Assembly (NCBI GenBank): GCA_018303405.1 | Contig: JAGVYD010000009.1 | Location: forward strand, 195,045-259,044 | Direction of reading: 5' to 3' | Length of the DNA stretch: 64,000 nt | Source of the DNA: Candidatus Woesearchaeota archaeon | GTDB taxonomy: Archaea; Nanobdellota; Nanobdellia; Woesearchaeales; JABMPP01 | Shown: piece by piece, positions 21,556 to 48,139 of the stretch | How positions within the stretch are numbered: position 1 is the stretch's first letter | Layout of the letters: each line of letters starts with the position of its first letter | Translations under genes and position numbers: made by a program | The notes under the pieces: model-generated | Databases searched by the model: none | What the model was told of the DNA's origin: nothing | What the model saw: only the letters and a program-made list of their open reading frames with translations

Positions 21556-22230
21556 ATGCCAGTTACAGCCAAAAAAGAGGTGATAAGCGAGAGCGATCGA
21601 ATTATCCAATTATATACCCATACAATTTCTGAGCTCAATTCTATAGACCAAAACGACGCACAGAAACTCACAAGCCTTGTTGTTGATTTTTTTACCAGGC
21701 TTTATGGTCTCAAAAACAGCATCACACTGGAAGAGCTTGTCAAGGATATAAGCAAACGGAGCCTGTATCCCGGGCTCAGGAATGAAACTATAGAATTTAT
21801 TGAAAAATTGTCCAACCTCCAATATTTTTTTCCAGTAACAAGGATGGAGTCAGCCAAGGCAATGGCCGATCACTTCAAGATCCTGGCCAAAGAGCTTTGC
21901 AACAATCTTCTTATCCGAAAAAAAGTTGATCCAGAAAACCGTAAAAAAACAAAGGGAATAAGGGGGATGCAGTGGCTCAGCACGCCTTTCAATCTATTTA
22001 AACGCAAAAAGAACGAACTGGATGTTGATTATGACACGGAACAAATAATCACATTAATCAATCAGGCAAGAAGGGCATTTAAGCATGGTGACACGAAGAC
22101 AGCATCTGAAATCTACACCACAATAATGAATATGCATGCCATGCTTTCTTCACATCAGCAAAAGGAACTTGATTTTCACATTTCCAAGCTGCACGAAAAA
22201 TTCAGGATTGCAAATAAGGGAAAAAAGTGA
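21556..22230 (+). CDS. Hypothetical soluble helical protein, paralogous by eye to the cytoplasmic tail of the 920-aa membrane protein
   Basis: 224 aa with no TM segment. The segment order resembles residues about 740-920 of ORF 26663..29425 (see findings). Confidence 0.45.
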   Translation: MPVTAKKEVISESDRIIQLYTHTISELNSIDQNDAQKLTSLVVDFFTRLYGLKNSITLEELVKDISKRSLYPGLRNETIEFIEKLSNLQYFFPVTRMESAKAMADHFKILAKELCNNLLIRKKVDPENRKKTKGIRGMQWLSTPFNLFKRKKNELDVDYDTEQIITLINQARRAFKHGDTKTASEIYTTIMNMHAMLSSHQQKELDFHISKLHEKFRIANKGKK

Positions 22231-22308
22231 GCGTAAATGCACTCCAAAGCTTTCCCTCTCTCCCATTCTTTATCATTCCAACTGGCGCCCAAATCAAATC
22301 CAATCAAC

Positions 22309-25300
22309 CTAAGTTTCCACTTTAGGCCTACGGTACAGGTAGTAGAACAGAATCATGCTTGCGGAAAATATTATTGTCAATACAGTCAGATAAACCACAG
22401 GAGACTGGATTAATGATTTAACCTGTTTCCATGCGTCCCGGAGCGGGGACCTTTTCTCCACTGTTGCCTCCTTATTGGTTATTAGATATTTGCAGCTCTC
22501 AATCACAGAATCAATAATCAGCGTGGCCCTGTTAAGGTTGCCGCTGGCAATTTCTGTTTTGGCGCTTTCCAGGAGCTCATTCAATTCAAGGCATTCTGGG
22601 TTTTCATTCAGGAGATCCCTGACAAATGCTATTTTTGTGTTGACCTGGGACTTGTTTACCTCACCCTTTTCTATGCTGCTTAAAATTATCTTCGCGCTAT
22701 CGGTAAACGCAGGCAATTGCACCCTTCCTTCAATTACAACTTCAAATGTGCCATAGACATCTTCGCTGGTCAGTGTAAGGCTCACCTCTTTTTGCTGGCC
22801 GACCTCCAAGGCTTCAATATAGGTCTCAGACAAGATGGGCGTTGCCTTGCTGTTATCGCTGCTTGCAGTGAGATATATTCCAGAAAATGTCTCGTTTGCA
22901 GTATTGATAATGGCAACCGGTGTTATTATTGTGCCATTGGAGTAATAAACAGGGATTCCAGGCACAATTATCTCATAGTTCACCAACTCTTTCTCCTTCT
23001 CTTCCTGCCTCTGCTCAGTCTGTTCCTCAATTGCCACAAAGCCGCCGCTTCCTCCCCCTCCCCCTCCGACAGCAACCGGCTGCACAGTCGCGGAGTCACT
23101 GGAATTGGAGATTGTTGTTATCTCAATGCGGTTGCTTGATACATTTGCGTAGCCGTCATTAAAGACAAATGTAATCACCTCTGTCCCCACAAAGTCATTT
23201 GAAGGCCTGAGGTTAACGCGATGTGTCGCCGCATCTATTTCAACATTAATATCATCATTGCCGGTCACGGAAATATTGATGCTGTCATCGCTGTCCAAAT
23301 CATAATAATAGTCATCAAGGTCAATCCAGTTGAGGAGCACAGTGTTCTTACTCCATGTCTTGTTGGGTGCAGTGTACCCTATGCTTACGGATGAGACATT
23401 CGGTGTGATATTGAGGTTAGAGGTGTTGAAGGCAATTTTATATCTTAAATACCTGTAAACATCAGATGTGATTTGGCTATTATTCTCGGTTATTGCGCTG
23501 CTCCAGGCAGATCCGTTGAAGTCGCCGTCGTCGCTGGTCTGCGTATAGAAAGCCAGCAGTGTATTATTGGGCATTGACCCAGTATAGCTTAAAGATGTGT
23601 AAGCCAATTCTGTGGCAGCATCTGAAAAGTCTATAGTGGGCGAAATATACTCCCCCTTGGAGATGTAGCTTGAGCCATTAATCTCCAGCCTGAGGTACCC
23701 TTCTCCAGTCAAGTTTGTAAAATTGAAGTTGCCTGTATATAGTTCGGCGTATGAATCATGCATCATCTTTCCATAAACTGGAGCCCTGTTGGCATTGGCC
23801 ACTGAGATGTTCCAGGCAATGCTTGAGTTTGCCAACAGATCGTCAAAAACAAACAGCACAAGACTATAATTGCCCGCTGAATCATAGCCTGCAGAATAGG
23901 TATAATTGCCACTTGTTGATTTTTCTGTGTAAGACCCGTATCTATTTATGGGCAGGCACCCTGAAGCAGATGAATGCCATTCACATCTCGCATTGGCTTC
24001 GCAGGCAGTCTGGTTTGTGCCGCTCGATGAACCACAAGCGGCTACCAATGATGCATTCTCCAAAGCAAGCTGCCAACTGTATGTCAAATTATAGCCTTCT
24101 GGATCAGATGATGTGTGATTGAACAGCACGGTGCCATTTTCATTTATGGATGCTGCGAGGCTTGTGGGCGCATAACTATTGATGACTGGAGGCTGGTTAA
24201 TCACAATGTATATCAGGGTGTAGTTCAATTTCTCAGAGTCATTCACTGTAAGATTGACTATGTAATTCAGGCGCGAGATGTTGCTCGGCGTAAAATTCAA
24301 GCGGAATGTGGTGGTGTTTATGGTCGTATTTACTGTAGCTATGGAAAAAATTGACATATTCTCAACCAGGCTAAGTGTGTCACCGTCAATATCATATGCA
24401 GTTATATTGAACCCGCAGCTTGAATTAAGCGTGCACGTGAAATTGCTGGCATTTGCGAAATATGGCGCATGATTCAGCCTTATGACTTCCAAATTGAAAG
24501 TAAAATTGCCGTATCCCTGGTCAGAATCATTGGCAAGGACCAGTATTGTGTGGTTGCCAACATCCCCCACTACCGGGTTAAAGAAGAATGTTTTTGTCGA
24601 TGAATTTACAACTGAGAACATCAGCCTGCTGTAATTCACTGATATGTTCACATGGTCGAAATCCAGGTCGTAGGCCGAAATATTGGCGCTGAACATGGTC
24701 CCTGTGTAAGCCGTCTGGTTTGCAATTGCGGCAAGGACAGGCGGCCTGTTTTCAGTCACTGTTATGTTCAGCAATACAGTGCTTGAGGCATTGAGCCCGT
24801 CATAGACCGTTAGGTTAAATGTGTAATTTCCAGACTGGCTGATATCCGGCGTGAAATTAATCATGCCACTTCCAGTCAATGTAAGCAGGGTCACATTAAA
24901 CAATGATGAATTGGAGGTGAAGTTTAGCACGTCATTATCAGCATCTGTGGCATTCACATAGTAGACAAAGTTCCTGTTTATCTTGGCAACCTGGTTTGTA
25001 ACTGTTCCCATTGCCGGATCATTGTTTACATCAAGAATTTCCAGGTTGAAAACAGTATTGTTGGTAAACCCATATGCGTCGGCAACAGTAATATTTATTG
25101 TATGGTTGCCAACGTCGCTGTTTGAAGGGGTGAAATAGAACCCGCCAGCTGTGGAATTATATGAAACAGTCGAGAAACTTGAATAATTGGAGCTGAAAGT
25201 AAGACTGTCGCTGTTGGGGTCAGACGCATAGGCTGTAAGGTTAAACAAAACATTTTCAGTGCCTGCCTGGTTTGCAATAGGGACTATGAATGGCGGGTCA

Positions 25301-26631
25301 TTCTGTATGATATAGAAATTCCTGATTGCATATGAAATTTGGCCTGAGCTGTCATTTACGGTGATGTTGACAGCATGATCACCCTGGTCCAGGGCAGTTG
25401 GCGTGAAATTAATGTAGCCGGACAAATTCATGCTAAATGCCGGGAAAGAGCCATTAACCGAATATGAAAAGTTCAGGATGTCCCCGTATGCCTCGTCCGG
25501 GTCTGAAGCGCTTAATTGCTCAGTGTAAGCAATGCCAATTGCCCATGTCTTGTTCTGCTCAAAGGCCAGGTAAGGCGGGTCATTCACATTTGTCACATTC
25601 AGCACAATATAATTGCTGTCGCTGCTTGCATATGAGTCACTTGCTGTGAAGACTACTGTCTCATTGCCGGACCAATTGCCTGTTGGGTAGAAGGACACAT
25701 TGCCTGTTGTCTGGTTAATTACCACGGCAATGCTGGAGTTGCCTGAGACAGAATAGGTTATTGTGTCAGCATTCGATGAATTGCACTCAAGGGCATCATT
25801 GTCACTAAAAAAGACTGATAATGTTATATTGTCAATAAGGCTGTTGTCCTCCTGCCAGGTTATGTTAGGCAATTGCAGGCTGGCATTAAACTGCGGCGGC
25901 CGGTTCGTGTTTGTGACATTCAGGGTCCAATTAACAGTGCGATAGCTTCCATTTACATCGCTGACGTTCAGGGAAATATTATGGAGCCCAAAGTCGCAGA
26001 AAGACGGTGAATAGGTAAAATTACTTGAATTGACACTGGCCACTGCCCCATCAACCATCCAATTTGACGTCAGATTGTCCCCATAATCCAGGTCGGGGTC
26101 ATCTGCAGTATAATTGAATAGCAAAGTGCTGACATTTTCAGTGGCTGTCTGCTCTAGGGAAACAGGGTAATACCCTGTGATATTGGGCGGGTCATTAGTA
26201 TTGGTCACGTTGAATATTACGCTGACTGACTGTGACTCAGAGGGCGTGCCTGCGTCTCCCACCACAAGATAAAACCCATGAACCCCAACATCATCATTTT
26301 CAGGGGTGAAATTCATCAGGCCGCGCTGGGCATCGTAATCAACAAGGCTGAATGCACTTAGGTTGTTGGCTGTAAACTGGAAATTCAATGGGTATTCAAG
26401 GTCGGCATCAGTGGCATTTATCCAATAGGTGAACAATGAATCCTCGGCAATTGTAAATGTGTCCCCGTCGCTGATATTGTCAAATGTAGGCTTGGCAGCA
26501 TAGACCGGGTATGAGTTCAATGCAACAGAAAGGGCAAAAATAATAACCATTCCACTCAGGAAATATGCAGAGGCCACCCTATTTTCGGCATATGTTTCCC
26601 TGCCCATCTTATCCTGCGGATTTTTTGTCAT
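22309..26631 (-). CDS. Giant surface protein with about 9-10 cadherin-like (CADG/He_PIG-type) repeats, a CARDB-like domain and a C-terminal TM anchor
   Basis: 1440 aa with an N-terminal signal anchor. Repeat boundaries carry cadherin-linker-like motifs: VTNTNDPPNI, VTNTNRPPQF, VTNVNDPPYL, IIQNDPPF, LDVNNDPA, VTENRPPV, IRLNHAPYF, VINQPPV, VANANRAPV. Has a GGGGGGSGG linker and a C-terminal VVYLTVLTIIFSASMILFYYLYRR. N-x-S/T sequons are very dense. Confidence 0.72.
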   Translation of the reverse strand: MTKNPQDKMGRETYAENRVASAYFLSGMVIIFALSVALNSYPVYAAKPTFDNISDGDTFTIAEDSLFTYWINATDADLEYPLNFQFTANNLSAFSLVDYDAQRGLMNFTPENDDVGVHGFYLVVGDAGTPSESQSVSVIFNVTNTNDPPNITGYYPVSLEQTATENVSTLLFNYTADDPDLDYGDNLTSNWMVDGAVASVNSSNFTYSPSFCDFGLHNISLNVSDVNGSYRTVNWTLNVTNTNRPPQFNASLQLPNITWQEDNSLIDNITLSVFFSDNDALECNSSNADTITYSVSGNSSIAVVINQTTGNVSFYPTGNWSGNETVVFTASDSYASSDSNYIVLNVTNVNDPPYLAFEQNKTWAIGIAYTEQLSASDPDEAYGDILNFSYSVNGSFPAFSMNLSGYINFTPTALDQGDHAVNITVNDSSGQISYAIRNFYIIQNDPPFIVPIANQAGTENVLFNLTAYASDPNSDSLTFSSNYSSFSTVSYNSTAGGFYFTPSNSDVGNHTINITVADAYGFTNNTVFNLEILDVNNDPAMGTVTNQVAKINRNFVYYVNATDADNDVLNFTSNSSLFNVTLLTLTGSGMINFTPDISQSGNYTFNLTVYDGLNASSTVLLNITVTENRPPVLAAIANQTAYTGTMFSANISAYDLDFDHVNISVNYSRLMFSVVNSSTKTFFFNPVVGDVGNHTILVLANDSDQGYGNFTFNLEVIRLNHAPYFANASNFTCTLNSSCGFNITAYDIDGDTLSLVENMSIFSIATVNTTINTTTFRLNFTPSNISRLNYIVNLTVNDSEKLNYTLIYIVINQPPVINSYAPTSLAASINENGTVLFNHTSSDPEGYNLTYSWQLALENASLVAACGSSSGTNQTACEANARCEWHSSASGCLPINRYGSYTEKSTSGNYTYSAGYDSAGNYSLVLFVFDDLLANSSIAWNISVANANRAPVYGKMMHDSYAELYTGNFNFTNLTGEGYLRLEINGSSYISKGEYISPTIDFSDAATELAYTSLSYTGSMPNNTLLAFYTQTSDDGDFNGSAWSSAITENNSQITSDVYRYLRYKIAFNTSNLNITPNVSSVSIGYTAPNKTWSKNTVLLNWIDLDDYYYDLDSDDSINISVTGNDDINVEIDAATHRVNLRPSNDFVGTEVITFVFNDGYANVSSNRIEITTISNSSDSATVQPVAVGGGGGGSGGFVAIEEQTEQRQEEKEKELVNYEIIVPGIPVYYSNGTIITPVAIINTANETFSGIYLTASSDNSKATPILSETYIEALEVGQQKEVSLTLTSEDVYGTFEVVIEGRVQLPAFTDSAKIILSSIEKGEVNKSQVNTKIAFVRDLLNENPECLELNELLESAKTEIASGNLNRATLIIDSVIESCKYLITNKEATVEKRSPLRDAWKQVKSLIQSPVVYLTVLTIIFSASMILFYYLYRRPKVET

Positions 26632-26662
26632 TTTGCCTCATTTCATATTTTTCATTCCGTAC

Positions 26663-29425
26663 TCACATCATCTTTTCCATTTTCATTTTCTTGTTTAGCT
26701 CCAGGCCGATTGACATGATCTTGTCATAGTATTTTTTCTTATCTTCCGCGGAAAGCATCTTGTACTTCTGCATCAGCTTCCCATAATGCTCCCTTATTTC
26801 TTCGGTTGGGCTGTTTTGGGCTATCAGTTTTTCAACCTGGTCGATTATCATTTCCATGCTTTCCAGGCCAAGCGCAAAATACTTCATGGCAGTCTCTTCC
26901 ACAGCATGCACAACTGCCTTGGATTCCTTCAACAATGCCAAGACCCTGTTCTTGTCAATTTCTGCAGTGCTGAACTTAAGCTCTTCCATCTCTTTCATGA
27001 ATTTGTTTGCTGTCTCAAATTTCTTGGAGTCCATCTTTTTGAATGACATCTCCTTCCGCAGCTCATCATAGGATGCCTCATACCCTATGCCGAGCAAATC
27101 TGAGACAATCCTTGAAAACAGGCCGTTGAGCATCTCAATTATGCTCTTGCTGTCCAACAGCTGCACTTTCTGCTCCAACACCGCAATCTTGCTGATATAA
27201 TCCTTTTCCAGCTGGGCAAAGTATTCCTGCTTCTTGACCTTCTTTTTCTTGACAGGCATGGCAAAAGGCCTGGCTTCGGTGACAAACTTGTCAATGCGCT
27301 TTCTGTTCATTACATAAATGGCTATTAGCACCAGCACCAGCATCAAGGATATTGCGAAAAAACTGACCCTTCCAGGGCTTCTTGCCTCAAAAAATCCGCA
27401 TGGCTGGCATGGCCCTCCACAGTCTATACCCTCCTCTCCTCCGTTTCTGGTACCGTCCCCGCAATTTGGGCATACAGGGCATTCGCCGCCGCAATCAATC
27501 CCTGTTTCATGCTGGTTCTGGATTTCATCATAACAGGAGGGGCATGCAGCGCATCTTCCTCCGCAGTCCACACCTTCCTCATTCCCATTCCTGAACCCGT
27601 CACGGCAGCTTGCACACCTGTCACACGGCCCGCCACAGTCCACTCCTTCCTCGCCCTGGTTCTGAATGCCATCAAAACAATTTGCGCAGGCAGGGCAAAC
27701 AGGCCCCCCACAGTCCACACCTTCCTCATTTCCATTCTTTATGCGGTCAGTGCAGGTCGGGAAATATGAGCATTCCCTGCTCAATTCCGGCTTTTTGAGG
27801 GTTGTCTTGCATTCTATGTTCATCTCAGTGCACTGCCTTACCTGGATAAATGTCGGCAGGCACGGCCCCCACTCATCACATTTCCATTCTTCGGTGCACG
27901 GCGCTATCAGGGCCGCGCTTCCGCCGCCCCCTCCCCCTCCCCCCGGGACAACTTCAGGGCCAGGCGAATATGCGCCAATTACCTGTATCACTGTCAGCCC
28001 TACAAGATTGCTGGTTGTTTTTGCCGCGAAATTGTCAGTGGCAATGTAATACACACTTTCATTCCCATAGAATGCCGGGTCTGGAGTCAGGGTTATCACA
28101 TGGGTGGTTGGATTTATGCTTATCACTATATTCGCCAAGGCTGTGTATGTGTAAGTCAGGTTATCCCCGTCCGGGTCCATGAAATAATCATCCAGGTCGC
28201 GGCCAGTCAAAATTGTATTTTGGTTCCAGGTTTCATTTGGAAGATAGTTGGCAAGGACCGGCGGCCTGTTTGTTATTGTGGCAAAAGAGGTGTCATTTGC
28301 ATGGCTGCCAGTGATGCTGCAGTTTATCCGATATGTGTAATTTCCCGGCCTGGAAAAATTTCTGCTGTACTCATAGACTTTGGTGGTATCATTATATTCC
28401 ATTGGCCGCCCGGCATCATAAGCGCCAGAGCTGTAAAAGGAAAGATTGCAGTCTGCGCCTGTCAATGGCTGGTTGTTCATATAAGTATAATTGGCATAAA
28501 ATTTGACCTGCTCACCAGAATATCTTACATAATAACGGGTGTCATCATAAACCTGGATTGTATTCTGCTCAGTGACATAATAGCTACCAGACAATTCAAA
28601 TACAAAGAATGTGATGCTTGTGTTCGTAAGGCTCAATGCAATGCAATCAAACATGGAGCAAACCTCGCCATCATGGATTATAGTTGGCGATTCCAGTGTA
28701 AGATTATAGAAAGTTATTCGTGCTCCTGTCATAAGCCCGGGGAGATAAGTAATGTTTATGTTCATGAAATTCCTGCTCAAGTTTGCATATGAGTCGAAAT
28801 CATACCCATCTATGCCAACATCCTCTGTGAAATTTATTGACGCCATGTTCGGCATCCCGAGCCTGAAATCTGCCACATTGTTCCAGCAGTCAAACAATGT
28901 AAGGTTGGTTGTCTCATAATTCCTGAAATTATCCCAGGTTGGCTCAAGGCAAATGCTGAAATTCACATCTTTGCTTGTATTGGCATTGCTGCATGATGAA
29001 TTATCGGCTATTGTGACAATTGTATGGAATTGGCCAAGATCACTGATTGACGGGATGAATGAAATCACACCCAATTCAGTCACATTATACAAACCAGTGC
29101 TATCATAGTATGTTATATTGTGCCCATCATCATCACTTGCGCTTATATTGCAATAGTATGAGCTGCTGACATTCACGTGAGTGGGGCAGGAATTCCCTGT
29201 GTTCGGGGGAGTATTGATGCAGAACCTGACAGAGCCAGTCACTTGGCCCTGGATTGCCGGCGCATTGGAATATTTGGCCGTGCCGGCATAAATTGCATAA
29301 TTTACAGCAATAACACCGATGAACAATGCAATAGCAACCAATGCCACTATATTGTTGGGCATAATTAAATCCAGGCCAGTCTCCATTTTTTTCACTTTCC
29401 GCTTTACAGCCTTCTTATGCCCCAT
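26663..29425 (-). CDS. Type I membrane protein: cadherin-like ectodomain, poly-Gly hinge, five cysteine-rich repeats, TM helix, 214-aa cytoplasmic helical tail
   Basis: 920 aa with signal anchor IVALVAIALFIGVIAV, GGGGGGGGS at aa 495-503, Cys repeats at aa 558-676, TM helix FFAISLMLVLVLIAIYVM, then a KE-rich tail. The start overlaps the stop of the upstream 191-aa gene by 11 nt. Confidence 0.7.
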   Translation of the reverse strand: MGHKKAVKRKVKKMETGLDLIMPNNIVALVAIALFIGVIAVNYAIYAGTAKYSNAPAIQGQVTGSVRFCINTPPNTGNSCPTHVNVSSSYYCNISASDDDGHNITYYDSTGLYNVTELGVISFIPSISDLGQFHTIVTIADNSSCSNANTSKDVNFSICLEPTWDNFRNYETTNLTLFDCWNNVADFRLGMPNMASINFTEDVGIDGYDFDSYANLSRNFMNINITYLPGLMTGARITFYNLTLESPTIIHDGEVCSMFDCIALSLTNTSITFFVFELSGSYYVTEQNTIQVYDDTRYYVRYSGEQVKFYANYTYMNNQPLTGADCNLSFYSSGAYDAGRPMEYNDTTKVYEYSRNFSRPGNYTYRINCSITGSHANDTSFATITNRPPVLANYLPNETWNQNTILTGRDLDDYFMDPDGDNLTYTYTALANIVISINPTTHVITLTPDPAFYGNESVYYIATDNFAAKTTSNLVGLTVIQVIGAYSPGPEVVPGGGGGGGGSAALIAPCTEEWKCDEWGPCLPTFIQVRQCTEMNIECKTTLKKPELSRECSYFPTCTDRIKNGNEEGVDCGGPVCPACANCFDGIQNQGEEGVDCGGPCDRCASCRDGFRNGNEEGVDCGGRCAACPSCYDEIQNQHETGIDCGGECPVCPNCGDGTRNGGEEGIDCGGPCQPCGFFEARSPGRVSFFAISLMLVLVLIAIYVMNRKRIDKFVTEARPFAMPVKKKKVKKQEYFAQLEKDYISKIAVLEQKVQLLDSKSIIEMLNGLFSRIVSDLLGIGYEASYDELRKEMSFKKMDSKKFETANKFMKEMEELKFSTAEIDKNRVLALLKESKAVVHAVEETAMKYFALGLESMEMIIDQVEKLIAQNSPTEEIREHYGKLMQKYKMLSAEDKKKYYDKIMSIGLELNKKMKMEKMM
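27398..27754 (-). repeat. Five tandem cysteine-rich repeats within the CDS, each about 22-26 aa
   Basis: CTDRIKNGNEEGVDCGGPVCPAC / CFDGIQNQGEEGVDCGGPCDRC / CRDGFRNGNEEGVDCGGRCAAC / CYDEIQNQHETGIDCGGECPVC / CGDGTRNGGEEGIDCGGPCQPC. Confidence 0.85.
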
Positions 29426-29990: not shown

Positions 29991-30272
29991 ACTTGTTTAT
30001 TATCAACTAAACTACTATATAAACTTTTTTATATTTATTATCAACAATTTCATAATATAATTACTTGTTTGTTGATTATCAACATATATGAATATAATTT
30101 TTTCGAGTATTCAGACATAGTCCCTATCCTCTCCCTGTACTAATACTCTACTCCATATCATACTTTATATTATATAGCTCATATATAATGCGCATAATAC
30201 ATTCATATACAGCTTAGATGCAATATGGCTTATAATAAAGATTGTATTATGCACATGAATCCCAAACTCTGA

Positions 30273-30698: not shown

Positions 30699-30823
30699 TT
30701 TGCCCCCGGATTTGTTCAAAGCGAACACTTTTAATTATTCTGCTGTTATCAAGCCAAAAATCCATATCTTCTGCCGATAGTTGTTAACCTCTGGATATTT
30801 GTTAACAGCTGCGGCTTAAATAC

Positions 30824-32038: not shown

Positions 32039-32122
32039 TGTATTGCTGTTTTTTTATTACTGTTGTTTTTGTGCCTGCGTTGACGTCAGTGCTCCTGTTC
32101 CCCGCAACGGCCAAGCCAGCGC

Positions 32123-32842: not shown

Positions 32843-32860
32843 AAAATGACCCCAGGCACG

Positions 32861-33091: not shown

Positions 33092-33096
33092 ATCCC

Positions 33097-35452: not shown

Positions 35453-35457
35453 TCCCT

Positions 35458-36723: not shown

Positions 36724-36738
36724 CCTGCTGATTGCATC

Positions 36739-39700: not shown

Positions 39701-42700
39701 CAGTTCCATCCGTCAGAGCCGCTGTATTCTGAAAACCTTCCATTTGTGAAAACAGTCAAGTCATCCCCGCAGCAGCCTAAGGTCGATGTGTCAGGATATT
39801 CCCCCACATTGCTTTCTCCTGCGTAAGCGGCATTCCAGCTTATGTTCAGGGCAAAGGTGCTGCTTCTTGGGCTGATGACACCCTTCTCACGGCCGCAAAC
39901 ATAGCCGCACCAGTAATCTGCGTAATCCGATGTATCGCATTGCAGCCATGTTCCTGTCCCGCCAGATGAATAGCAATAGCCTATACTGTCATTCCCGCCA
40001 AGATTCAGATGATTATATGCAGAATTCGAATTTACAGCAGGAGTGGCATCTGGAGTGAAACATGATTCACCTGCAACGCAATCAGACGTTGCGCTGCAGC
40101 ATGCATCTTCAGCATTAACAAAAACAAGCTCAGAAGAGGAGCTGTAGTTCCTCTCTATTATTGTATTTTCATTTGAATCGTCGCCGCAACACGTGCTGTA
40201 AGAGCCTTCGCCGCCAATGCTCCAATTATATGTTGATGTGCAGCCTGATGCAGATGATGTGCAAAGTGACTCGTTTGTGTCCCTGTCATAAAGGTAAGCG
40301 CTTATTGTGCAATAGCCTGCACCGCTGCAATTCTGGCCTCCATAGAATGTTTCGGATGAACAAAAGTCAGTATTGTTGCACTGGCCTGTCACTGTAGTGC
40401 CGCTGCCAGAGCAATAAGTCCCAATATTGTTATTATAGCTGGTGGTAGCGCATGAAGCAGCACCGCCTGTGCAGAAGCCCGTTCGCCCTGTTGTAACACA
40501 GACGCTTGCGCATGAAGTATTGGTCGCTGAACAATCATTGTTTGGATCGTCATTTGCATTGGCATAGGTGCACGTTCCACTTCCACTGCAATACCGGCAT
40601 GTGCCTGAGCATGTTGTTCCAACTGTGTCTTTTGTGGCGTTTGCAATATTATTGCATGTTCCTGCGCCATCACATTCCTTGCAATCGTAGCAATTTGCTG
40701 CTTCCTGCCCTGATGCAGGCGTCTGGCAGGTTGAATAGCCAGCAGTGCATTGGCTTGCGCAGGTTCCAGAGCATGTAGTTCCGGTGTTATAGCCGCAGGT
40801 TCCTGAAGTTCCTGAGCATACTGAACTGTCCAATATTGTCTGGCCAGAGCATGTGTAGGAGCCTGTGCAATCACCTTGCGGATCAGTGTTTCCAGGAACT
40901 ATTTCACAAAACTCATCTCCAAATCCATCCCATTCACAGCACGTGCCTATATCATTACATTCAACTTGTGTATCACAAAAAACGCCTGTGCAAGTGCTGC
41001 CACAGACACCCTGGCCGCGATACTGCGTATCATATCCTGTGCCATTTACTGCAATGCCTGTGAAATTGTTTGTAATGTTATTTGTTATTGCATTGTAAAT
41101 ATTCAACCGCGACCATACTACTGTCTCTTCATTTATTATGCTCCCTGTTGCTATCAGCAATTTTTTCATTTGTGCATTATCCAAGGAATCATTGTACTGG
41201 TAAACCAAAGCAGCCCCTCCTGAAACAAAAGCTGCAGATATGCTTGTTCCTGAGGCAAGTTCCGCATTTGCATTATGGTCAACAGAATCAATGTCCTCCC
41301 CAGGGGCCAAAAGGACAATGGCATTATTGGAGCTGGTAAGGGCAGATAGACGGTCATTTTCTGTGGACGCACCAACTGGAAGAGCTGTTTCTGCACAAGC
41401 AGGGCTGACAATTGTGTTGTTGTACGTGTTTCCTGCTGCTGCAACAGTAAGTATGCCAAGCCCGCTCAGCTCATCGACTTTTTGCGCAACCGGATTATCA
41501 TAGCATATCCCAGTATATCCCCCTGCACCAATGCTCATGGATATTATGTCAACATTTTGCTCCTTGCAATATTCCAGCCCTGCGAGAATGTCTGATTCAT
41601 AGCCAATTCCCTGGGAATCCAATACCTTCACTGCTATCAGCTGGGCAGCAGGCGCCATCATGTATGTGATGTACGAAACCAAGGTGCCGTGGCCATTGTC
41701 ATCCTGGTAATCATTGGTCTGGGCCAGGACATTATACCCATACGCAGTGTTCTGCACAACTGATGGGTTTACTCCTGTGTCAAGGGCGCAAATCTTTATT
41801 CCTGAGCCGTCCAATTGCAAGCCATAGGCTGTGTTGAGATAATACTCTTTTGCCTCACCAAGCATGATTATCTTTGATGAGTTTTCAAACAGGAGGCTGA
41901 CTGGCTGGTCAAGATAAACCTTTTCAATGCCCTTATTGCCTGTCAATTTCGACAGCCTTGTCTTGTCCATATGGGCAACATCAATATCATCAGTAACAGC
42001 TATTTCGCCTATTTTTTTGCTTGATGGGGTTTTGTACTTCACAATAACCCTAATGGGCTCAGAAGCCCTCTCCAATTCATGGATTACATTCTTGTCAACA
42101 TGGAACTGGTATCTTGCAAATATCAAATCCTCTTCTGTGTAATTGGAGGCATTCTCCACCCAGCCTTGGTCCAGGTCAGGAAACAGGCCAGTGATGAAGG
42201 ACAATCCTTTCCCAGATTCATTACCTGCCTGGCTTTGGTCCATGTCTGTGTCCATTACATAATCAATTCTGTCAATTGTGACAGCTGAATCATCAACTTC
42301 AAAAACCAGTGAATAATTTTCCCCTGGCAAAGAAATGTTGCAGGTGTCTTTGCATTCAAGGCTGAAATCCCGGATATCAGGCTCAACAAATGATGCAGGC
42401 AACTCTGCCCATTGGCCTGAATAAACGCTGTCATCAGCTTCGTCGTAATACACCACCTGCGCCCTTACTATGTTGTCATTTCCAGCTGAATTTTTCCCAA
42501 CAAAAACATTGTAAGCGTCATCCCATCCTGGCGCTGATGGAATAAACCCAAGGACATTGCAGCATGATTCGCTGCCATAGCATTCATATGACGATTCAGC
42601 AGTTTCAATGTTTTCAATTTCCCATCTTGTGCATGTGCCCTCAACTTTTGCATCAATTGAGAATTCTGTTCCACTGGCATCAAAATCAACCACGCCTTTT

Positions 42701-43344
42701 ACAGATTCAACGCCGTTGTCATCCTGGTCAAATGCGGAGCCGGAATTGTAGGCAAGCTTCACTGAAATGTCCTGCGCCGGCACAAAATCTTCCTGCTTCA
42801 CTGCTTCACTCGGGGCTGATACGGGGAAAGATTCTCCCTGCCCAAGGCTGAGTATCTCCAATCTTGTGCCATTGAAACCAAGGTAAACCCTGGCAGGCCC
42901 TTCGCCAACCACTGCGCCAGTAAGCTTTACTGCAAGCAGGTTTCCCGGCACAGCAGGCACCCAGGCGTATTCACTGTTTTCTGAAAAAGTTTTGCCAACG
43001 GGCAAAGAGTACCCTATACCCTGGGCAGGCTCTTCAAGCACGGCAAGGCCAGTAATGCCTTGCCGCAGAAATAGAAAAAAGCCGGATATGAACACGATGG
43101 CCAGGAAAACTGCCAGGCCAACTGCCAAATATGTCTTGCCTGATTCAGTATGTTTCTTGATGGCATTTTCAAGCGTGGCAATATGGCTCTCGCTTTTGCT
43201 AATCCAGTGCAGCAGGTTTTCCCCCTTAATCCTTGTCTTTGGATTCCTGGCCTGCAGCTGGAGAAGCCTTGTGTGGAAGCGTTTCCACTCTTCCAAGCTT
43301 TTCCTAAGTCTCTCTAATCTACCCTTTCTTTCCGATGCTTTCAT
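36739..43344 (-). CDS. Giant type II-anchored surface protein: subtilisin-like (S8) protease, long Cys-rich region, two LamG/ConA-like lectin modules
   Basis: The tracked start is TTG and the ATG two codons in is used. Has an N-terminal cytoplasmic coiled coil and a TM helix (YLAVGLAVFLAIVFISGFFLF). The S8 triad lies in order ICALDTGV / DDNGHGT / GTSISAAFVSGGAA (DNA about 41086-41838). The CCGDD motif occurs three times. LamG-like modules lie at about 37963-38610 and 37093-37695 (FDGAVDRIVVP...HHIAWTY...GFIDDVKIFNR; ...WHHIVILRDG...LDEVKIWNR). Confidence 0.8.
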   Translation of the reverse strand: MKASERKGRLERLRKSLEEWKRFHTRLLQLQARNPKTRIKGENLLHWISKSESHIATLENAIKKHTESGKTYLAVGLAVFLAIVFISGFFLFLRQGITGLAVLEEPAQGIGYSLPVGKTFSENSEYAWVPAVPGNLLAVKLTGAVVGEGPARVYLGFNGTRLEILSLGQGESFPVSAPSEAVKQEDFVPAQDISVKLAYNSGSAFDQDDNGVESVKGVVDFDASGTEFSIDAKVEGTCTRWEIENIETAESSYECYGSESCCNVLGFIPSAPGWDDAYNVFVGKNSAGNDNIVRAQVVYYDEADDSVYSGQWAELPASFVEPDIRDFSLECKDTCNISLPGENYSLVFEVDDSAVTIDRIDYVMDTDMDQSQAGNESGKGLSFITGLFPDLDQGWVENASNYTEEDLIFARYQFHVDKNVIHELERASEPIRVIVKYKTPSSKKIGEIAVTDDIDVAHMDKTRLSKLTGNKGIEKVYLDQPVSLLFENSSKIIMLGEAKEYYLNTAYGLQLDGSGIKICALDTGVNPSVVQNTAYGYNVLAQTNDYQDDNGHGTLVSYITYMMAPAAQLIAVKVLDSQGIGYESDILAGLEYCKEQNVDIISMSIGAGGYTGICYDNPVAQKVDELSGLGILTVAAAGNTYNNTIVSPACAETALPVGASTENDRLSALTSSNNAIVLLAPGEDIDSVDHNANAELASGTSISAAFVSGGAALVYQYNDSLDNAQMKKLLIATGSIINEETVVWSRLNIYNAITNNITNNFTGIAVNGTGYDTQYRGQGVCGSTCTGVFCDTQVECNDIGTCCEWDGFGDEFCEIVPGNTDPQGDCTGSYTCSGQTILDSSVCSGTSGTCGYNTGTTCSGTCASQCTAGYSTCQTPASGQEAANCYDCKECDGAGTCNNIANATKDTVGTTCSGTCRYCSGSGTCTYANANDDPNNDCSATNTSCASVCVTTGRTGFCTGGAASCATTSYNNNIGTYCSGSGTTVTGQCNNTDFCSSETFYGGQNCSGAGYCTISAYLYDRDTNESLCTSSASGCTSTYNWSIGGEGSYSTCCGDDSNENTIIERNYSSSSELVFVNAEDACCSATSDCVAGESCFTPDATPAVNSNSAYNHLNLGGNDSIGYCYSSGGTGTWLQCDTSDYADYWCGYVCGREKGVISPRSSTFALNISWNAAYAGESNVGEYPDTSTLGCCGDDLTVFTNGRFSEYSGSDGWNWTEDTTCGAANICFYVISSGKNIDGGSWYIQADGDSTWDQVMAQWTPEINFPSTAFTVEFDYKCINDSSGSGWYMRFRDNNHSCCQDAATTTGTVHLANGSVFTKSMSGFTCKANESGHFNGTLTTPAQTNPDYYWRMWDYSNSDTEMQIVIDNLEAYRTSYGTEYNVYDRGGVDVPTGYNATTNNTCCRSGTSCGLNNTCYDTGEMVGAIPTKAYCHGSFWMGGDSTSEICTAITGGSNWDLGGDVTATACCGDDSGENGLSRTCDLGSCTTSSSDRACCNEASKCVYDSACYANNVSTDPDSDGILEVCLAGTWYDGDKPNITFDYTNDRNGSYISRNWTWVNVTVFDNSTNVTAFFDWNKSLVLWLRFNNETGENDTYFRDWSSYENNATCVPSSCPVYAEGKMGRGMEFDGAVDRIVVPADASLNFSYVTYSLWFKVRNQTQEWGGTNQTQIIHHGLWGNGNGVQLFDNPGSVIVRSQTYIGSTNYYSSSVTLDHRTYHHIAWTYNGTHIRTYIDGRTITITAVSGVMDASQTNNSIFIGGTQNGAWRNFPGFIDDVKIFNRPLSPEEINATYNASVYSLYRNFTDLVDNTSYNFKAYVQDRAGNVNATELIELKVDKVYPQISFDEATESNGLITTEPWAIVNVSVSDDYLGTAFVDFGRSLKGWWRFNRESGENSTFARDWSTYGNNGTVFSGSTTSGRFGSGVLLHGTTSSWVNLSRSAMDGLNNFTVEFWAKSSDTSKSGTPIHGSSATGNNEFLIFNYGASVFIKDASFSTGVTLNDGDWHHIVILRDGDNGTVYMYKDGVPKISKNMSNGSLQITGCLVLGQEEDAACGGFDETQAYLGILDEVKIWNRIISIQEINASYRAGTYKLYQNYTSLSPGAYPYTAYVQDLAGNLNQTSQQGLTVQSPLCNCPSSGNWTLSALNCIILDNCDLQKKNIYLWTYSNMTILGANVTNAGNVSKYGSSRLIKENGGRLVQGTG

Positions 43345-43447
43345 CGGCAACCCCGGCCTCTTTATTGATAATCAAGCGAATAATCGTAACCCACAGAAGG
43401 AACCAGCCTGCGAACGCTATGCAGGAATGGTTTTTTCATTGTGAGGC

Positions 43448-46447
43448 TTATGGACATGTTGCATCAATTGTGTTTGTTGATTGTATGATAATGCAGCCGG
43501 AGGCGTTTACAAAGATTGAATTGGTGCCGGACTCAAAGGCAATAGCTTCAACTGTGAGGTTGCCTGTAATCACAACTTCGTCATCAGTCCCGGCTGACAA
43601 TGTTATTTTGTCTATTAGGACAGTGCCTGCCTGTCCAATTGTTATATCATCATTAGCTGCGTCAAAGCTCAGAATATTCCTCATGCTGGAGCCATCACCT
43701 GAATATATGGCACCTGTTCCTGACGCGCCTGTCTGCCATACCATGACTGCATCAGTTTTCCCGTCGAGAGACTGATTGAAATAGCCAGGAGTCACATTCA
43801 AGGGGCCGGATGTGAGATTTGCAGTTACTCTTGCGCTGCCTTGCACATGAAGGGTGTCTTTCGGGCTGCTTGTGCCTATGCCGACTGTTCCTGAGTTGTT
43901 GATGACCATGGCGATGGTTCCGGTGCCAGGCCCTGATGTCGCGCCAACCTCGAAAACCAGGTCATCCCAGGATGCGAGCTTCAGGCTGTTCACGCTTCTT
44001 GTCATGCTGAAAAGGTGTGTTGAACTGGAATAGCCCTCAAACCCATCGCCTCCGCTGGCCACTTCTGACCTTATGTTGCCGCCTGAAATATGCAGCTTGG
44101 TAGATGGAGCAATACCTATTCCTACGTTGCCTGTCCCATCAACAAGCAGGCCAGAGCCTGAACCGCTGCCAGTCACATTAAGAGTGCCTTTCAGATGCAA
44201 AGTATAAGAGGGAGTGGTTGTATTGATGCCGACATTCCCATTTTTGTCCAGAGTCAAGCCATCTGACCAAGTTACAGTGCCCCCGGCCGCGACATCCTTT
44301 GCATATCTCATGCTGAACAAATCGCTGTATTTATATAATGCAAAGTTTGATGTTGATGAGCTTTTCCAGCTCCCTGCCCAGTAGGCATCGAAAACAAGGC
44401 CTGTATTGTTGTGGCTATAAGCCAAAAGCTGTGCCACCGGATGAGTATCTGCAGTTGTATGGAACTGTAGATGGGGACCTGCTACACTTCTGTCATCTCC
44501 ATAAATCCTTAATTTTGCCCCGCCCGAACCTGAATAATTTATTGGGCCAATGCTAACATTACCTGAGCCGTCTACAAATAATACTCCCGGGCCAGTTGCG
44601 TTGCCGGAGACATTCAGCGTTCCACGGACTTCCAATGCACTTGTCGGGTTAGTAGTGTTTATCCCAAATTCCCCGGATGTTTCAATAACAACCCGATTAG
44701 TGGCACCATCTCCAGTGGCAATATAAAATTCGTTACCGCCTGTTCCTGCAACGTCACTGTCCATTAAGCCATGTGACCACTCCGTCGCGCCACCACCTGT
44801 TGCATATCTCACCCTTGCACCCCGGTTTGTCGCAGCCCTGTCCAATGAGAAATCTGCATTGTCAGCAGAATCAACTGTAACACCTGCTGCTGTACCAGCC
44901 ACTGTGACATCACCGCCTGTCGGGGTTATGGTCAAATCACCATTGGTGTCAGAAAGGAATGTTGTGTAAGATGAGCCATCAGCAAAAGTTAGCCGCAACT
45001 GGTCCGTGGTTGATGACAAAATATCCAGTTTTGCATCTGGCCCTGAAGTGTCTATCCCAATCAGTCCTGTGCTTTGCACCATTACTGAGCTGTTGAGCGA
45101 GCCGGAGCTGTTCCATAATGCAATATATCCAGCCGCGCCTGAGCCGTTGACAGAGCCTGTTCCGGCACCCCCTGAATCAGAACCACATGTCCCAACTCCG
45201 CTGCTCCATTTGAGAACTTGGTCATCCGCACAGTTGGTGGCAAGGACAATATTTGTTGCATTTAATGTTCCGGAAACAACAAGTTTTGAGCCAGTTATGT
45301 TGGTGCCAATGCCAACATTTCCGGAAGAATCCAGAACCAAAACCTCACTGCCCTGCGCCGCCGAGCCTGGATAGAAATTTATGTCACCCGAAGCTTCTAT
45401 ATTCAGGGCATTTGCCTTTTGTGCAAGGCCGCTTCTTCCGACATTTATTTTTGCGAAGGCTGCATCAGCTGTGCCCATTATTAAGAATGTATTCTGGTTT
45501 GCAGCTGTGTTGTTTATTAGTACACCATTTGTGCTTGAAGATGTGATTATTGTCAATGGTGCAATGGGGGCGGACGTCCCGATGCCTACCTTGCCAGAAG
45601 AATCAACCATTAATCCCGTTGTCCCTCCGGGAGACGCGTTGAACGTTCCTTGTATTTGGAGTGTTTGCGTAGCGTTGGATGTGTTTATACCCACTTTTCC
45701 ATCGGAGTCGATTCTTAATCGTTCAGTCATTATACCTGCATTTTTTCTGGTCTGGAATGTAATGGCTGTATCAAGATTTGTGGCATCGGTAATAATTGCA
45801 CTTATCCTACCAACATTTGCCCATGTACCACTAGCGCGTTGCGCATTCATAATAATTGCAGTTCCAATTCCATCTTCGGCAGTTCCTGTTGTTCCATGCC
45901 AAACCGAAAGAACATCGGTAACAGCATTGTTTGTCGAATCATTGGCCCTGACATCCAACACATGCGCTGGCCCTGTTGTTCCAATTCCAATTAATCCCGC
46001 ACTCTGATAAATTGTTGAGCTATTAATCTCATTAGTGCCATTCCACAAGGCAAGATAACCAGCAGTGCCTGAGCCATTAACACTACCTGAACCACCACCT
46101 CCTGCCTGCGAATCAACATAAGCCTTAGTTGCTGCATCTGTATCTGCAGTTGGCGTGGCAAGGCCTATTATCTTGTTCCCCGCCATGCTCAATACACCTG
46201 ATAAATTCAATGTGCCGGAAATATTCGCATTGCCTGCGACTGTAAGCCTAAATGAGGGATAGGTTGACCCAATTCCAAAATAATTTGTGATAAACAAGCT
46301 ATCCGGGAATGTGTAATTGCCTGACTCAAATGTGCCAGAGGCTATGGCAGCAGCTCCGTGGCCAGGGTCTGCTGCGAAGCTTTGCTGCGAAAGCAAAGCT
46401 ACAATGAGCACCATTGCAATTGTCCACTGAAATTTGTTGCTCCTCAT
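43448..46447 (-). CDS. Secreted tail-fibre-like repeat protein
   Basis: Signal peptide MRSNKFQWTIAMVLIVALLSQQSFA. Has MAGNKIIGLATPTADTDAATKAYVDS and repeated modules of the type GSG.AGY.ALWN......NSS.....GLIGIGT..P...LDV and GNVGIGT..P...L.V.GT.N, as seen in phage/bacterial tail-fibre-like proteins. The start could also be 46480. Confidence 0.62.
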   Translation of the reverse strand: MRSNKFQWTIAMVLIVALLSQQSFAADPGHGAAAIASGTFESGNYTFPDSLFITNYFGIGSTYPSFRLTVAGNANISGTLNLSGVLSMAGNKIIGLATPTADTDAATKAYVDSQAGGGGSGSVNGSGTAGYLALWNGTNEINSSTIYQSAGLIGIGTTGPAHVLDVRANDSTNNAVTDVLSVWHGTTGTAEDGIGTAIIMNAQRASGTWANVGRISAIITDATNLDTAITFQTRKNAGIMTERLRIDSDGKVGINTSNATQTLQIQGTFNASPGGTTGLMVDSSGKVGIGTSAPIAPLTIITSSSTNGVLINNTAANQNTFLIMGTADAAFAKINVGRSGLAQKANALNIEASGDINFYPGSAAQGSEVLVLDSSGNVGIGTNITGSKLVVSGTLNATNIVLATNCADDQVLKWSSGVGTCGSDSGGAGTGSVNGSGAAGYIALWNSSGSLNSSVMVQSTGLIGIDTSGPDAKLDILSSTTDQLRLTFADGSSYTTFLSDTNGDLTITPTGGDVTVAGTAAGVTVDSADNADFSLDRAATNRGARVRYATGGGATEWSHGLMDSDVAGTGGNEFYIATGDGATNRVVIETSGEFGINTTNPTSALEVRGTLNVSGNATGPGVLFVDGSGNVSIGPINYSGSGGAKLRIYGDDRSVAGPHLQFHTTADTHPVAQLLAYSHNNTGLVFDAYWAGSWKSSSTSNFALYKYSDLFSMRYAKDVAAGGTVTWSDGLTLDKNGNVGINTTTPSYTLHLKGTLNVTGSGSGSGLLVDGTGNVGIGIAPSTKLHISGGNIRSEVASGGDGFEGYSSSTHLFSMTRSVNSLKLASWDDLVFEVGATSGPGTGTIAMVINNSGTVGIGTSSPKDTLHVQGSARVTANLTSGPLNVTPGYFNQSLDGKTDAVMVWQTGASGTGAIYSGDGSSMRNILSFDAANDDITIGQAGTVLIDKITLSAGTDDEVVITGNLTVEAIAFESGTNSIFVNASGCIIIQSTNTIDATCP

Positions 46448-46701
46448 TTTTTCCTTTTCTCCCTGGCCCTGTTGTAGCATGTCCAGATGGTCCTGTCATC
46501 CCTGTTCAGCATCACGGCAATCTCATGGTATGTCAGCCCCATGGAATCCTTCATGAACTCAGAAATTGCCTCGAGCACGCTGACCTGCCTGTCCTGGAAG
46601 ATATGGGTTGGCAGGAGGATTTCAGCCGATTGCTGCATAGCAGTTGCTTTAGAATCATTCTTTCCTTGCTCCCGTTCCCTCTTTCTATTCGCCACTATCA
46701 C
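46444..46701 (-). CDS. Small helix-turn-helix protein (LuxR/HTH_10-like), first gene of the surface-protein operon
   Basis: VSVLEAISEFMKDSMGLTYHEIAVMLNRDDRTIWTCYNRAREKRKK is a C-terminal HTH pattern. The tracked start is GTG, and the first ATG would be 46638 (64 aa). Its stop overlaps the ATG of the next gene. Confidence 0.55.
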   Translation of the reverse strand: MIVANRKREREQGKNDSKATAMQQSAEILLPTHIFQDRQVSVLEAISEFMKDSMGLTYHEIAVMLNRDDRTIWTCYNRAREKRKK

Positions 46702-46727
46702 AACTCTTATTGCCGGAATGTTATTTA

Positions 46728-47140
46728 CTTACATTGTAAGGACTATAGTTTTTTTATTTATCGACTATAATTTAGTACATTGTAAGTAAACCTCTATTTA
46801 TATTTTTTTATTTTGTCCTGAAAACAGTCCCCCAACGAAAAAATACTTACAATGTAGGTATACCTTATTTATATTTATCGGAGTAATATTATTGCCTGAA
46901 GAAATTGACTGACAGTGTAAGTATTTATATTTTTTTCTATTAATCATTATATAATACAATATATCTTTTCTAATACATACAATGTAAGTATTAATTTTCG
47001 GCAATTATTTTTTTTAAATTTCTTACATTGTAAGTATACTAAATTAAAACTTTTTTTGTACTGACAATGTAGGTAATCCATATAGAAAACTTTTTGCCAG
47101 GACTGGAAGGGCAATTGAATCTTTACTTACATTGTAAGTA
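46728..47140 (+). repeat. Array of eight same-orientation copies of a 15-bp motif CT(T/G)ACA(A/T)TGTA(A/G)GTA in an AT-rich intergenic region
   Basis: Copies start at about 46728, 46775, 46846, 46909, 46976, 47022, 47061 and 47126. The core TTACA(A/T)TGTAA is a near-palindrome. Centre-to-centre spacing is irregular (39-71 bp). Confidence 0.8.
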
Positions 47141-47184
47141 ACAAATATCATAACTAAGAAAATTAAACCAGAAATCGGATTTCA

Positions 47185-48138: not shown

Positions 48139-48139
48139 T

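Follow-up and report, generated by a model that had tools for sequence, protein, structure and literature searches.

A conserved gene cluster of woesearchaeal and related archaea proposed to build a membrane-anchored adhesive surface complex or fibre

The window analysed here, a stretch of 64,000 nucleotides (nt) from the genome of a Candidatus Woesearchaeota archaeon (contig JAGVYD010000009.1), carries on its minus strand, from 46701 down to 22309, thirteen successive open reading frames (ORFs), g1 to g13. We propose that a conserved system of DPANN archaea (Nanoarchaeia) is represented in the window by this locus, and that its product is, on balance, probably an adhesive complex or fibre at the cell surface, anchored in the membrane. 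Its core, g4 to g10 with the frequent addition of g12 and g13, is a conserved, ordered operon and not an accessory insertion. The internal logic of this core, with a common C-terminal domain (CD), paralogous membrane-anchored immunoglobulin (Ig) proteins and a strand-only mini protein, had been overlooked in an earlier reading of the same stretch as a surface-protein island (hereafter the original prediction). To our knowledge, no member of the Woesearchaeota or Pacearchaeota is available in pure or defined co-culture, and we know of no account of how they contact their hosts. The cluster is a concrete candidate for how uncultured DPANN cells hold those hosts, and its gene set of CD family, WxLIP-like membrane proteins and strand-only minis is recognisable in metagenome-assembled genomes (MAGs). 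It would extend the surface-display logic of Gram-positive bacteria (WxL/Csc), together with strand complementation, to wall-less archaea.

The conserved core operon

A word-index search retrieved only 13 relatives of g6, one of the Ig proteins, and under-reports them. A pattern scan over one genome per GTDB species, with an alignment of g6 relatives as the query, found 107 encoding stretches, from which 80 loci were taken; the window proteins and two family hidden Markov models (HMMs) were then mapped onto all ORFs of these loci. The core operon is present in at least 83 loci from distinct genomes. Its order, which is strict at protein identities of 25–48% across the 83 loci, is large CD protein, IP1 (g6), small CD protein in one to four copies, IP2 (g9) and g10. 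Where at least 4 kb of sequence follows IP1, as in 56 loci, IP2 is found in 44, a small CD gene in 40 and g10 in 34. Altogether g10 occurs in 39 loci and always after IP2.

Two large membrane proteins, g12 and g13, frequently join the core, each in 21 of the 39 loci with at least 9 kb downstream of IP1, and a MoxR-DUF58-VWA triad is often linked to it. Homologues of g12, conserved over approximately residues 346–700, are found in 27 loci, and those of g13 in 25, usually between g12 and MoxR. MoxR, followed by DUF58 and VWA, comes directly after the g13 homologue in seven of about nine informative loci; the triad also adjoins the cluster, in varying arrangements, in L041, L066, L080, L082 and L083, and in the window it lies directly upstream (47185–50121). 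L084 has the core without g12, g13 or MoxR.

A 68-kb ENA scaffold (L001) encodes a g6 homologue that is 48% identical and is syntenic with the whole g4 to g13 stretch of the window, g5, g11 and the mini gene among them; upstream of g4 the two differ. Some MAGs contain two loci (L047/L054, L051/L061 and L053/L063), and L072 holds a tandem pair. The variable, lineage-specific part of the cluster consists of g2, g3, g5 and g11: homologues of g2 are limited to 3 loci and those of g3 to 9–16, g5 has orthologues in L001 and L002 only, and g11 is seen in 2 loci only, its L001 orthologue being 37% identical. The original prediction had named comparison with relatives beforehand as its test, and conservation of the cluster came through that comparison. 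The notion of an accessory, hypervariable island fails for the core; the four genes just named are the only lineage-specific ones. Because g4/g7/g8 and g6/g9 form paralogue sets, g4 to g10 is a structured module rather than a random run of adhesins.

Nearly all of the 80 loci come from MAGs labelled Woesearchaeota, Pacearchaeota, Nanoarchaeota or Nanoarchaeia, in keeping with the small-genome symbiotic archaeon, here a DPANN member, that the original prediction had expected. Among L019, L007, L009, L026, L051–L053, L061 and L063, several record titles read 'uncultured Methanosarcinales archaeon'; these labels probably reflect mislabelling or bin contamination, as the loci are typical of Nanoarchaeia. 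All named family members are annotated 'hypothetical protein', and our literature searches found no description of this gene cluster.

The common C-terminal domain and its membrane-bound partners

All-against-all BLAST of the island proteins yields two paralogue sets, g4/g7/g8, related through their C-terminal domain, and g6/g9. The small CD protein g7 (33097–33903, 268 aa) comprises a transmembrane (TM) helix, an ITGMAT linker and the CD; the second small CD protein, g8 (32123–32842, 239 aa), is 32% identical to it over its full length (E 4e-32) and matches a CD HMM built from 42 small proteins at 3.5e-51. In the secreted 'large CD' protein g4 (35458–36723, 421 aa), the CD corresponds to residues 266–416 (HMM 4e-19) and ends 5 aa before the C-terminus. 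This arrangement is general: the CD, of about 150 aa, makes up the whole ectodomain of small CD proteins and is located at the extreme C-terminus of 64 large proteins of 292–3322 aa, ending 1–13 residues from their end. It has no Pfam family and no PDB sequence match, and comparison of g4 to g11 with Pfam, NCBIfam, PHROG and PDB sequences gave nothing usable for the CD, g5 or g11. An exhaustive CD profile search against 1.84 billion representatives returned 2778 clusters (defined at 50% identity) at E ≤ 1e-3 and 1848 at E ≤ 1e-10. We regard the CD as a new docking-type C-terminal domain family, common to small proteins and variable giant heads.

The small CD family is characterised by a K-rich N-terminus, a TM helix, an [IL]TG[FYM]A[TS] linker, a strand G-x-V-N-V-T-I, an E-N-x-G-N motif, a Cys pair and a final strand VPxDxxxGxK-A-T-I-T-F-T-A. 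The motif [ILVMF][TS]G.A[TSLV] is present in 33 of 61 small CD proteins versus 2 of 26 minis, and its form in the small CD proteins agrees with the -3/-1 rule of signal peptidase. In the AlphaFold2 (AF2) model of g7, obtained from 31 sequences with a predicted local distance difference test score (pLDDT) of 75, the C-terminal sheet is confident and the conserved N-terminal strand of the monomer pairs with no other (no DSSP strand, pLDDT ~63). Ten of the 12 best Foldseek neighbours of this model are subunits of donor-strand-exchange fibres (TLP-1a/b, cannulae-type, Csu, Fim and Pap, including PapE), at weak scores (1.7e-3 and 5e-3 for TLP-1a/b; by PDB entry, 9ikj 1.7e-3, 9bab 0.04 and 7zl4 0.1), with Caf1 lower in the list.

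The mini gene (32861–33091, 76 aa) is a fourteenth gene, absent from the original prediction and located within the 254 nt that separate g7 and g8. Its product consists of a TM helix, a linker, the strand VVQGQVSLNI and an acidic/Pro tail; it matches the CD HMM at 1.6e-6 over positions 1–55 only, that is, the TM helix, linker and first strand. It is 56% identical to the product of a 77-aa gene at the equivalent position of L001. Besides the window, L001 and L002, another 23 loci have minis (60–104 aa), and in 20 of 26 distinct minis a short tail rich in acidic residues and Pro comes after a G-x-V-x-[LIV]-x-[IV] strand.

Alternative assignments for the CD proteins were tried and dropped. A type IV pilin reading was rejected, since their N-termini, inspected by eye, read MKEVSNK-hydrophobic with no G/A cleavage site ahead of the helix; domain scans found no PilB, PilC or prepilin-peptidase gene in the island. 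The JGI label 'PilX' on one protein (P0030) is an automatic annotation. A TasA/SipW-type signal peptide in g7 ('GSLFGFFND') was abandoned because there is no Peptidase_M73/TIGR04088 match and the motif is unconserved in the family. The idea that large CD proteins are tip proteins without the first strand, in the way that FimH has no N-terminal extension, was likewise discarded, the HMM match starting inside that strand.

The heads attached to the CD are diverse. The giant g3 (36739–43350, 2203 aa), anchored at its N-terminus (TM 77–95), contains Peptidase_S8 (1e-29), two Laminin_G_3 (2e-35) and pentaxin (5e-20) matches in Pfam and 86 Cys, and has no CD by HMM. Its counterparts in relatives (L016, 2663 aa, and L037) have a subtilase at the same position and a C-terminal CD, and giants in relatives have subtilase, LamG, FG-GAP or beta-helix modules followed by the CD. 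Since the subtilase giants of relatives are fused to the CD, g3 would be the same type of head, with its CD split off onto g4. The secreted, fibre-like g2 (43448–46480, 1010 aa), which varies by lineage, matches PHROG tail-fibre families (1.7e-21 and 3.9e-17) and, in the PDB, the Bdellovibrio fibre bd2133 (8ond, 8.6e-6) and 8ojn (1.6e-4). Many giant CD proteins (L016, L018, L030, L034 and L077) open with the conserved cytoplasmic sequence M-V-(H/Y)-K-K-Y-x-Y-K-x-G-K-x-(F/Y)-G-P-Y-x-Y ahead of the TM helix; in others, among them g3 and the giants of L020 and L072, the N-terminus is helical and rich in Lys/Arg.

The second paralogue set provides the membrane-bound partners. IP1, or g6 (33960–35171, 403 aa), has a signal peptide, three beta-sandwich domains and a C-terminal TM helix, and IP2, or g9 (30824–32038, 404 aa), which also has a signal peptide and a C-terminal TM helix, is its full-length paralogue (22% identity over 390 aa, E 4e-15). 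The AF2 model of g6, from a 13-sequence alignment, has a pLDDT of 80 and shows the three sandwiches, an extra strand and the TM helix. In a Foldseek comparison with the PDB, the WxLIP of Enterococcus faecium, free and bound to long WxL, ranks 4, 14 and 18, with E from 5.7e-10 (9i25_C) to 4.9e-8, including 9i1y, and nearly the whole chain aligned; the alignment with 9i25_C has 258 columns against a 251-aa chain at a root-mean-square deviation of 10.7. The Pfam family matched by most g6/g9 members is WxLIP_HBD (DUF3324, PF11797), found in 47 of 114 at E ≤ 0.05 (best 1.3e-7); the window's g9 matches it at 0.017 and its g6 not at all. A g6/g9 profile searched against PDB sequences did not retrieve WxLIP at E ≤ 1. 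The likeness of g6/g9 to WxLIP is distant, visible by Pfam HMM and fold comparison only.

The mature N-terminus of g6-type proteins (g6 residues 27–52), (L)GI(T/S)PGRTT-x-F-EPG-x-x-K-x-V-x-V-x-V-x-N, is highly conserved. We take it, as a lead only, to be like the A1-strand region of PapD/FimC, with its basic residue near position 7–8; the Arg is unconserved in g9-type paralogues. A third Ig-type protein, g10 (30273–30728, 151 aa), has an N-terminal TM helix and one ASH/HYDIN-type Ig domain, which matches Pfam HYDIN_VesB_CFA65-like_Ig at 1.2e-5 and, weakly, Cep192, ASH and MSP. The Ig-like domains of MSP, ASH and HYDIN are related to the PapD fold. Between g4 and g6 lies g5 (35168–35452, 94 aa), a small protein with an N-terminal anchor (TM 10–28).

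The density of N-x-S/T sequons differs among the proteins. Per 100 aa it is 6.5 in g13, 6.4 in g4 and 4.5 in g7, moderate in g2, g3, g8 and g12 (2.5–3.0), and 0.25–1.2 in g5, g6, g9 and g11, near the background of 0.49 given by 12 flanking proteins whose domains are of housekeeping type or otherwise foreign to the island. The original prediction, which had called all of the proteins extremely rich in sequons, applies in this respect to g13, g4 and g7 only. That CD proteins are rich in sequons and IP proteins are not agrees with exposed and membrane-proximal positions, respectively.

Proposed mechanism, known systems and rival explanations

We propose a mechanism in which variable heads end in a common CD and are displayed by Ig proteins of the membrane. 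In this window the head would be g4; in relatives it would be a giant of two to three thousand aa, homologous to g3, with subtilase, LamG, FG-GAP or beta-helix modules. The proteins g6 and g9, with three Ig-like domains each, and g10, with one, would sit in the membrane. At the cell surface, g6 and g9 may retain CD proteins or assemble them via beta-strand complementation, as WxLIP does with WxL proteins of Gram-positive bacteria and PapD-type chaperones do with pilins. Small CD proteins would be cleaved after [IL]TG[FYM]A, and this cleavage could free the N-terminal strand G-x-V-N-V-T-I for insertion into the next CD. The membrane-anchored mini, with its TM helix and strand, might serve as plug and anchor at the base, and at the tip the large CD protein would present an adhesive or proteolytic head. 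A second, frequently linked module would be formed by g12/g13 and MoxR-DUF58-VWA, and expression would be controlled by g1 with its palindrome array and by a second operator before g11.

A more specific form of this proposal, which we put forward tentatively, is a new type of archaeal pilus in the Woesearchaeota/Pacearchaeota: a fibre formed by donor-strand exchange on Ig chaperones of WxLIP/PapD type that are tethered to the membrane (g6/g9/g10), with a mini at the base, a CD shaft and, at the tip, interchangeable giant heads of protease, lectin or fibre type. If true, the largest uncultured DPANN radiation would attach to its hosts by means of such a pilus, and the chaperone-pilin principle would have a third, independent variant.

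Two kinds of known system resemble the cluster. A WxL cluster is defined as at least one WxLIP and at least two WxL proteins adjacent to one another (Hassan et al. 2023, PMC10599100); WxLIP has the layout DUF916-DUF3324-TM and lies next to small and large WxL proteins (PMC10599100, PMC1534035), and the reported binding mode in these systems is beta-strand insertion. The present cluster similarly has small and large secreted partners with a common C-terminal domain, next to proteins of about 350–400 aa, g6 and g9, with a signal peptide, tandem Ig domains and a C-terminal TM helix, and several clusters per genome are possible in both. However, none of the 42 small CD proteins matches the WxL domain (dual Trp-x-Leu) at E ≤ 0.1, and DUF916 (PF06030; NQIDKxxxYFDLK motif) is found neither in the 114 g6/g9 members nor in 10 proteins scanned at E ≤ 1. 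The archaeal proteins have three Ig domains instead of two and occur as two IP paralogues, in cells without peptidoglycan to bind. To these differences come extra parts, namely the minis, g10 and the g12/g13 and MoxR module linked to the core, and giant heads that contain protease and lectin modules.

The second comparison is with donor-strand-exchange systems, for which we considered chaperone-usher pili, TasA/TapA, archaeal threads, bundling pili, cannulae and TLP-1 (PMC12518558, PMC9245690, bioRxiv 10.1101/2022.04.26.489512, PMC11494351). Here too the subunits are small beta-sandwich proteins whose N-terminal strand of alternating hydrophobics stands outside the fold in AF2, as for TLP-1, where the AF2 monomer was reported to leave the donor strand disordered. 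The 'donor-only' mini is comparable to TapA or Saci_0405, the large protein with a subunit-like C-terminal domain to FimH/PapG, and the likeness extends to the Ig-type partner proteins and the fold neighbours of g7. On the other hand, there is no sequence homology to any of these families, there is no usher, and the candidate chaperones are membrane-tethered; no island protein matches the Pfam families PapD_N, PapD_C or Usher. The large CD proteins moreover retain the first strand in cis. By analogy, the cluster may work like WxL/Csc systems and donor-strand fibres, and appears to be a member of none of them.

The original prediction had drawn a parallel between g3 and SPEARE proteins of the Nanohaloarchaeota. 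This parallel survives at the conceptual level, both being giant DPANN surface proteins with a serine protease and LamG-type adhesion modules, but no restriction-endonuclease domain was found in g3. SPEARE proteins exceed 5000 aa, whereas g3, in another lineage, has about 2200 aa and provides no more than the variable head within a larger, conserved system.

Several observations weigh against the proposed complex or fibre. The Foldseek list of g6 is dominated by generic multi-Ig proteins, and all WxLIP_HBD matches stay below the Pfam gathering score (best 27.8 versus 28.9 bits). For g7, the best Foldseek E is 1.7e-3 at a TM-score of ~0.35, and viral jelly-rolls are also listed. Large CD proteins hold the first-strand segment in cis, with the HMM match starting at position 47–50, so this strand could be an ordinary edge strand. 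Many giants combine an N-terminal TM anchor with the C-terminal CD, which is awkward for a tip adhesin, and the core includes no dedicated signal peptidase, usher-like pore or ATPase. The purpose of the system is likely host-cell contact, which we infer from domain types and lifestyle only.

The main rival is static docking of the WxL/Csc type, in which no polymer forms, g6/g9 tether single CD proteins (g4, g7, g8 and the giant heads of relatives), and the minis and small CD proteins are adaptors or competitors instead of fibre subunits. The cluster logic fits the WxL definition, with small and large proteins that share a C-terminal domain beside an Ig-tandem/TM neighbour, and the WxLIP_HBD and WxLIP structure matches, the cis first strand of large CD proteins and the N-terminal TM helices that small CD proteins and giants have of their own all point in the same direction. 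It nevertheless leaves without a role both the conserved strand-only minis and the signal-peptidase-like motif specific to small CD proteins; in addition, the g7 model is like fibre subunits, no WxL chain is among its top 50 neighbours, and the small CD proteins, as described above, lack the WxL domain. We consider this explanation rather doubtful, and we retain the proposed adhesive complex or fibre as the preferred one.

Two further explanations bear on the cluster as a whole. An ordinary envelope of surface-layer (S-layer) type, with g6/g9 as a SlaB-like stalk and CD proteins as a canopy serving a housekeeping role, would account for the wide conservation in the class, and Haloferax S-layer protein 7ptp is among the Foldseek matches of g6, to which a weak NCBIfam match to 'putative S-layer protein' (0.018) can be added. 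A large protein encoded with an Ig-rich protein of ~400 aa and a C-terminal TM helix recalls slaA-slaB. Such a role is made less likely by the presence of several loci per genome, including tandem duplicates, by heads that vary extremely (300–3300 aa, with protease, lectin or beta-helix modules) and by a dedicated HTH gene with operator arrays, which suggest regulated and not constitutive expression; a lattice would also not typically have paralogous IPs, or small CD proteins in one to four copies. We thus deem it improbable. The remaining explanation, a set of independent adhesins without common machinery or a horizontally acquired accessory island, draws on the narrow distribution of g2, g3, g5 and g11 (3, 9–16, 2 and 2 loci) and on the divergence of L001 from the window upstream of g4. 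For the core it is largely refuted by synteny, that is, by the strict order maintained over 83 loci at low identity; domain sharing and fusion tie g3-type giants to the CD, and neither a compositional anomaly nor mobility genes are found. We regard it as very improbable.

Control regions, second module and flanks

The first gene of the locus, g1 (46444–46701, 85 aa), encodes a helix-turn-helix (HTH) protein and candidate regulator, and all eight members of its family match Sigma70_r4_2 and HTH_23 (best 1.5e-9). Eight loci have g1 homologues, often as tandem duplicates, ahead of the large CD gene. The first control region (46702–47184; 483 nt, 25% GC) contains eight palindromes (T)ACTTACAATGTAAGT(A) of 13–17 bp, several of them just downstream of TATA-like boxes. 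Of the 16 matches to CTTACAATGTAAG in the window (up to 2 mismatches), 14 fall within 46702–47184, with 1.3 expected by chance window-wide. L009 has three copies of this motif ahead of its g1 homologue, one of them between a TATA-like box and the ATG, and the motif has only 4 matches across 1.11 Mb of loci. We consider g1 and the CTTACAATGTAAG palindromes a candidate regulator-operator pair. The small HTH regulator of the original prediction has a counterpart in g1, which is a real HTH protein; the 224-aa ORF at 21556–22230 on the plus strand, convergent with g13, has no HTH match and no match to any other family.

Gaps within the locus are mostly -37 to 97 nt, with the exception of the 282 nt between g10 and g11, in line with the gaps of 0–100 nt and the single AT-rich gap of about 280 nt described in the original prediction. 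This interval is the second control region (29991–30272, 26% GC). It contains the palindrome GTTGATAATCAAC and, 38 nt from each other, two related sites; all of these are conserved before the g11 orthologue of L001. Since this palindrome differs from that of the first region and is conserved in L001, two transcription units with separate operators are plausible, as is a second promoter region before g11; two units had also been predicted originally. The single attachment regulon under one regulator, which the original prediction had suggested, is not supported: with two distinct candidate operator motifs, two or more control points are the likelier arrangement. The gene directly after the second operator region, g11 (29415–29990), encodes a cytoplasmic protein of 191 aa with no Pfam, NCBIfam, PHROG or PDB match, which could be a regulator or adaptor; it shares with L001 15077–15652 the block SYDL-SL-H-KKT-FGYAL-GR...G-L...G...GRN-LVP.

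The frequently linked second module comprises large membrane proteins. With two TM segments (26–44 and 687–705), a Cys-rich ectodomain and a 215-aa cytoplasmic tail, g12 (26663–29425, 920 aa) matches Big_9 at 3.6e-6 and contains 36 Cys. The type I membrane protein g13 (22309–26631, 1440 aa) has cadherin-like/Big_9 repeats (Big_9 1.9e-31 in 6 stretches, Cadherin_5 1.2e-15) and a C-terminal TM helix. The triad on the same strand consists of a BatA-N and VWA membrane protein (47185–48138; Pfam VWA_2 8e-17, BatA 1.2e-10), a DUF58 protein that is the partner of MoxR (48140–49054; DUF58 1.4e-40) and a MoxR-type AAA+ ATPase (49135–50121; AAA_3 3.8e-61, AAA_lid_2), with gaps of 1 nt between the VWA and DUF58 genes and 80 nt between the DUF58 and MoxR genes. 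Known MoxR-DUF58-VWA (Bat-like) operons have the same three families in the same order, and the Pfam scores here are strong; the difference is that the triad is tied, in more than one arrangement, to g12/g13-type cadherin-like giants and the CD/IP core. A SpoIIM-like membrane protein encoded at 50343–51191 on the plus strand, divergent from the adjoining MoxR, may belong to the MoxR module.

As regards the inventory as a whole, the ORF table agrees with the thirteen minus-strand genes and coordinates of the original prediction. Signal peptides or TM segments are found in 11 of the 13 proteins, not in the twelve it had counted, since g11 and also g1 have no hydrophobic segment. Its cadherin-like, LamG, subtilase, tail-fibre-like and Cys-rich modules agree with the Pfam and PHROG matches, which support surface proteins with adhesin-type modules. 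Equally, domain scans found no integrase or transposase domain in any island protein, as it had stated, and the GC content of the island is the same as that of its flanks. Core replication and translation genes do stand on both sides, with Cdc6, the small and large subunits of PolD and aIF2-beta on one flank and an RPA-like protein, MCM and TBP on the other; the immediate right flank, however, is MoxR-DUF58-VWA, which is linked to the cluster in relatives. FEN1, a tRNA-intron endonuclease and RNase P p30 are also encoded in the neighbourhood.

A candidate replication origin (13810–14135) lies directly upstream of cdc6/orc1 (14221–15438). It has two direct copies of AGATG[C/G]TTCGGGGT at 13816–13859 and two inverted copies, with ends AAAAACCCC, at 14078–14134; these repeats flank about 240 nt of very AT-rich sequence and resemble origin recognition box (ORB) elements around an unwinding element. 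The tRNA-Gly(TCC) at 59583–59669 on the minus strand is 87 nt long and for this reason probably contains an intron; the tRNA-intron endonuclease gene lies in the same window, at 10767–11441.

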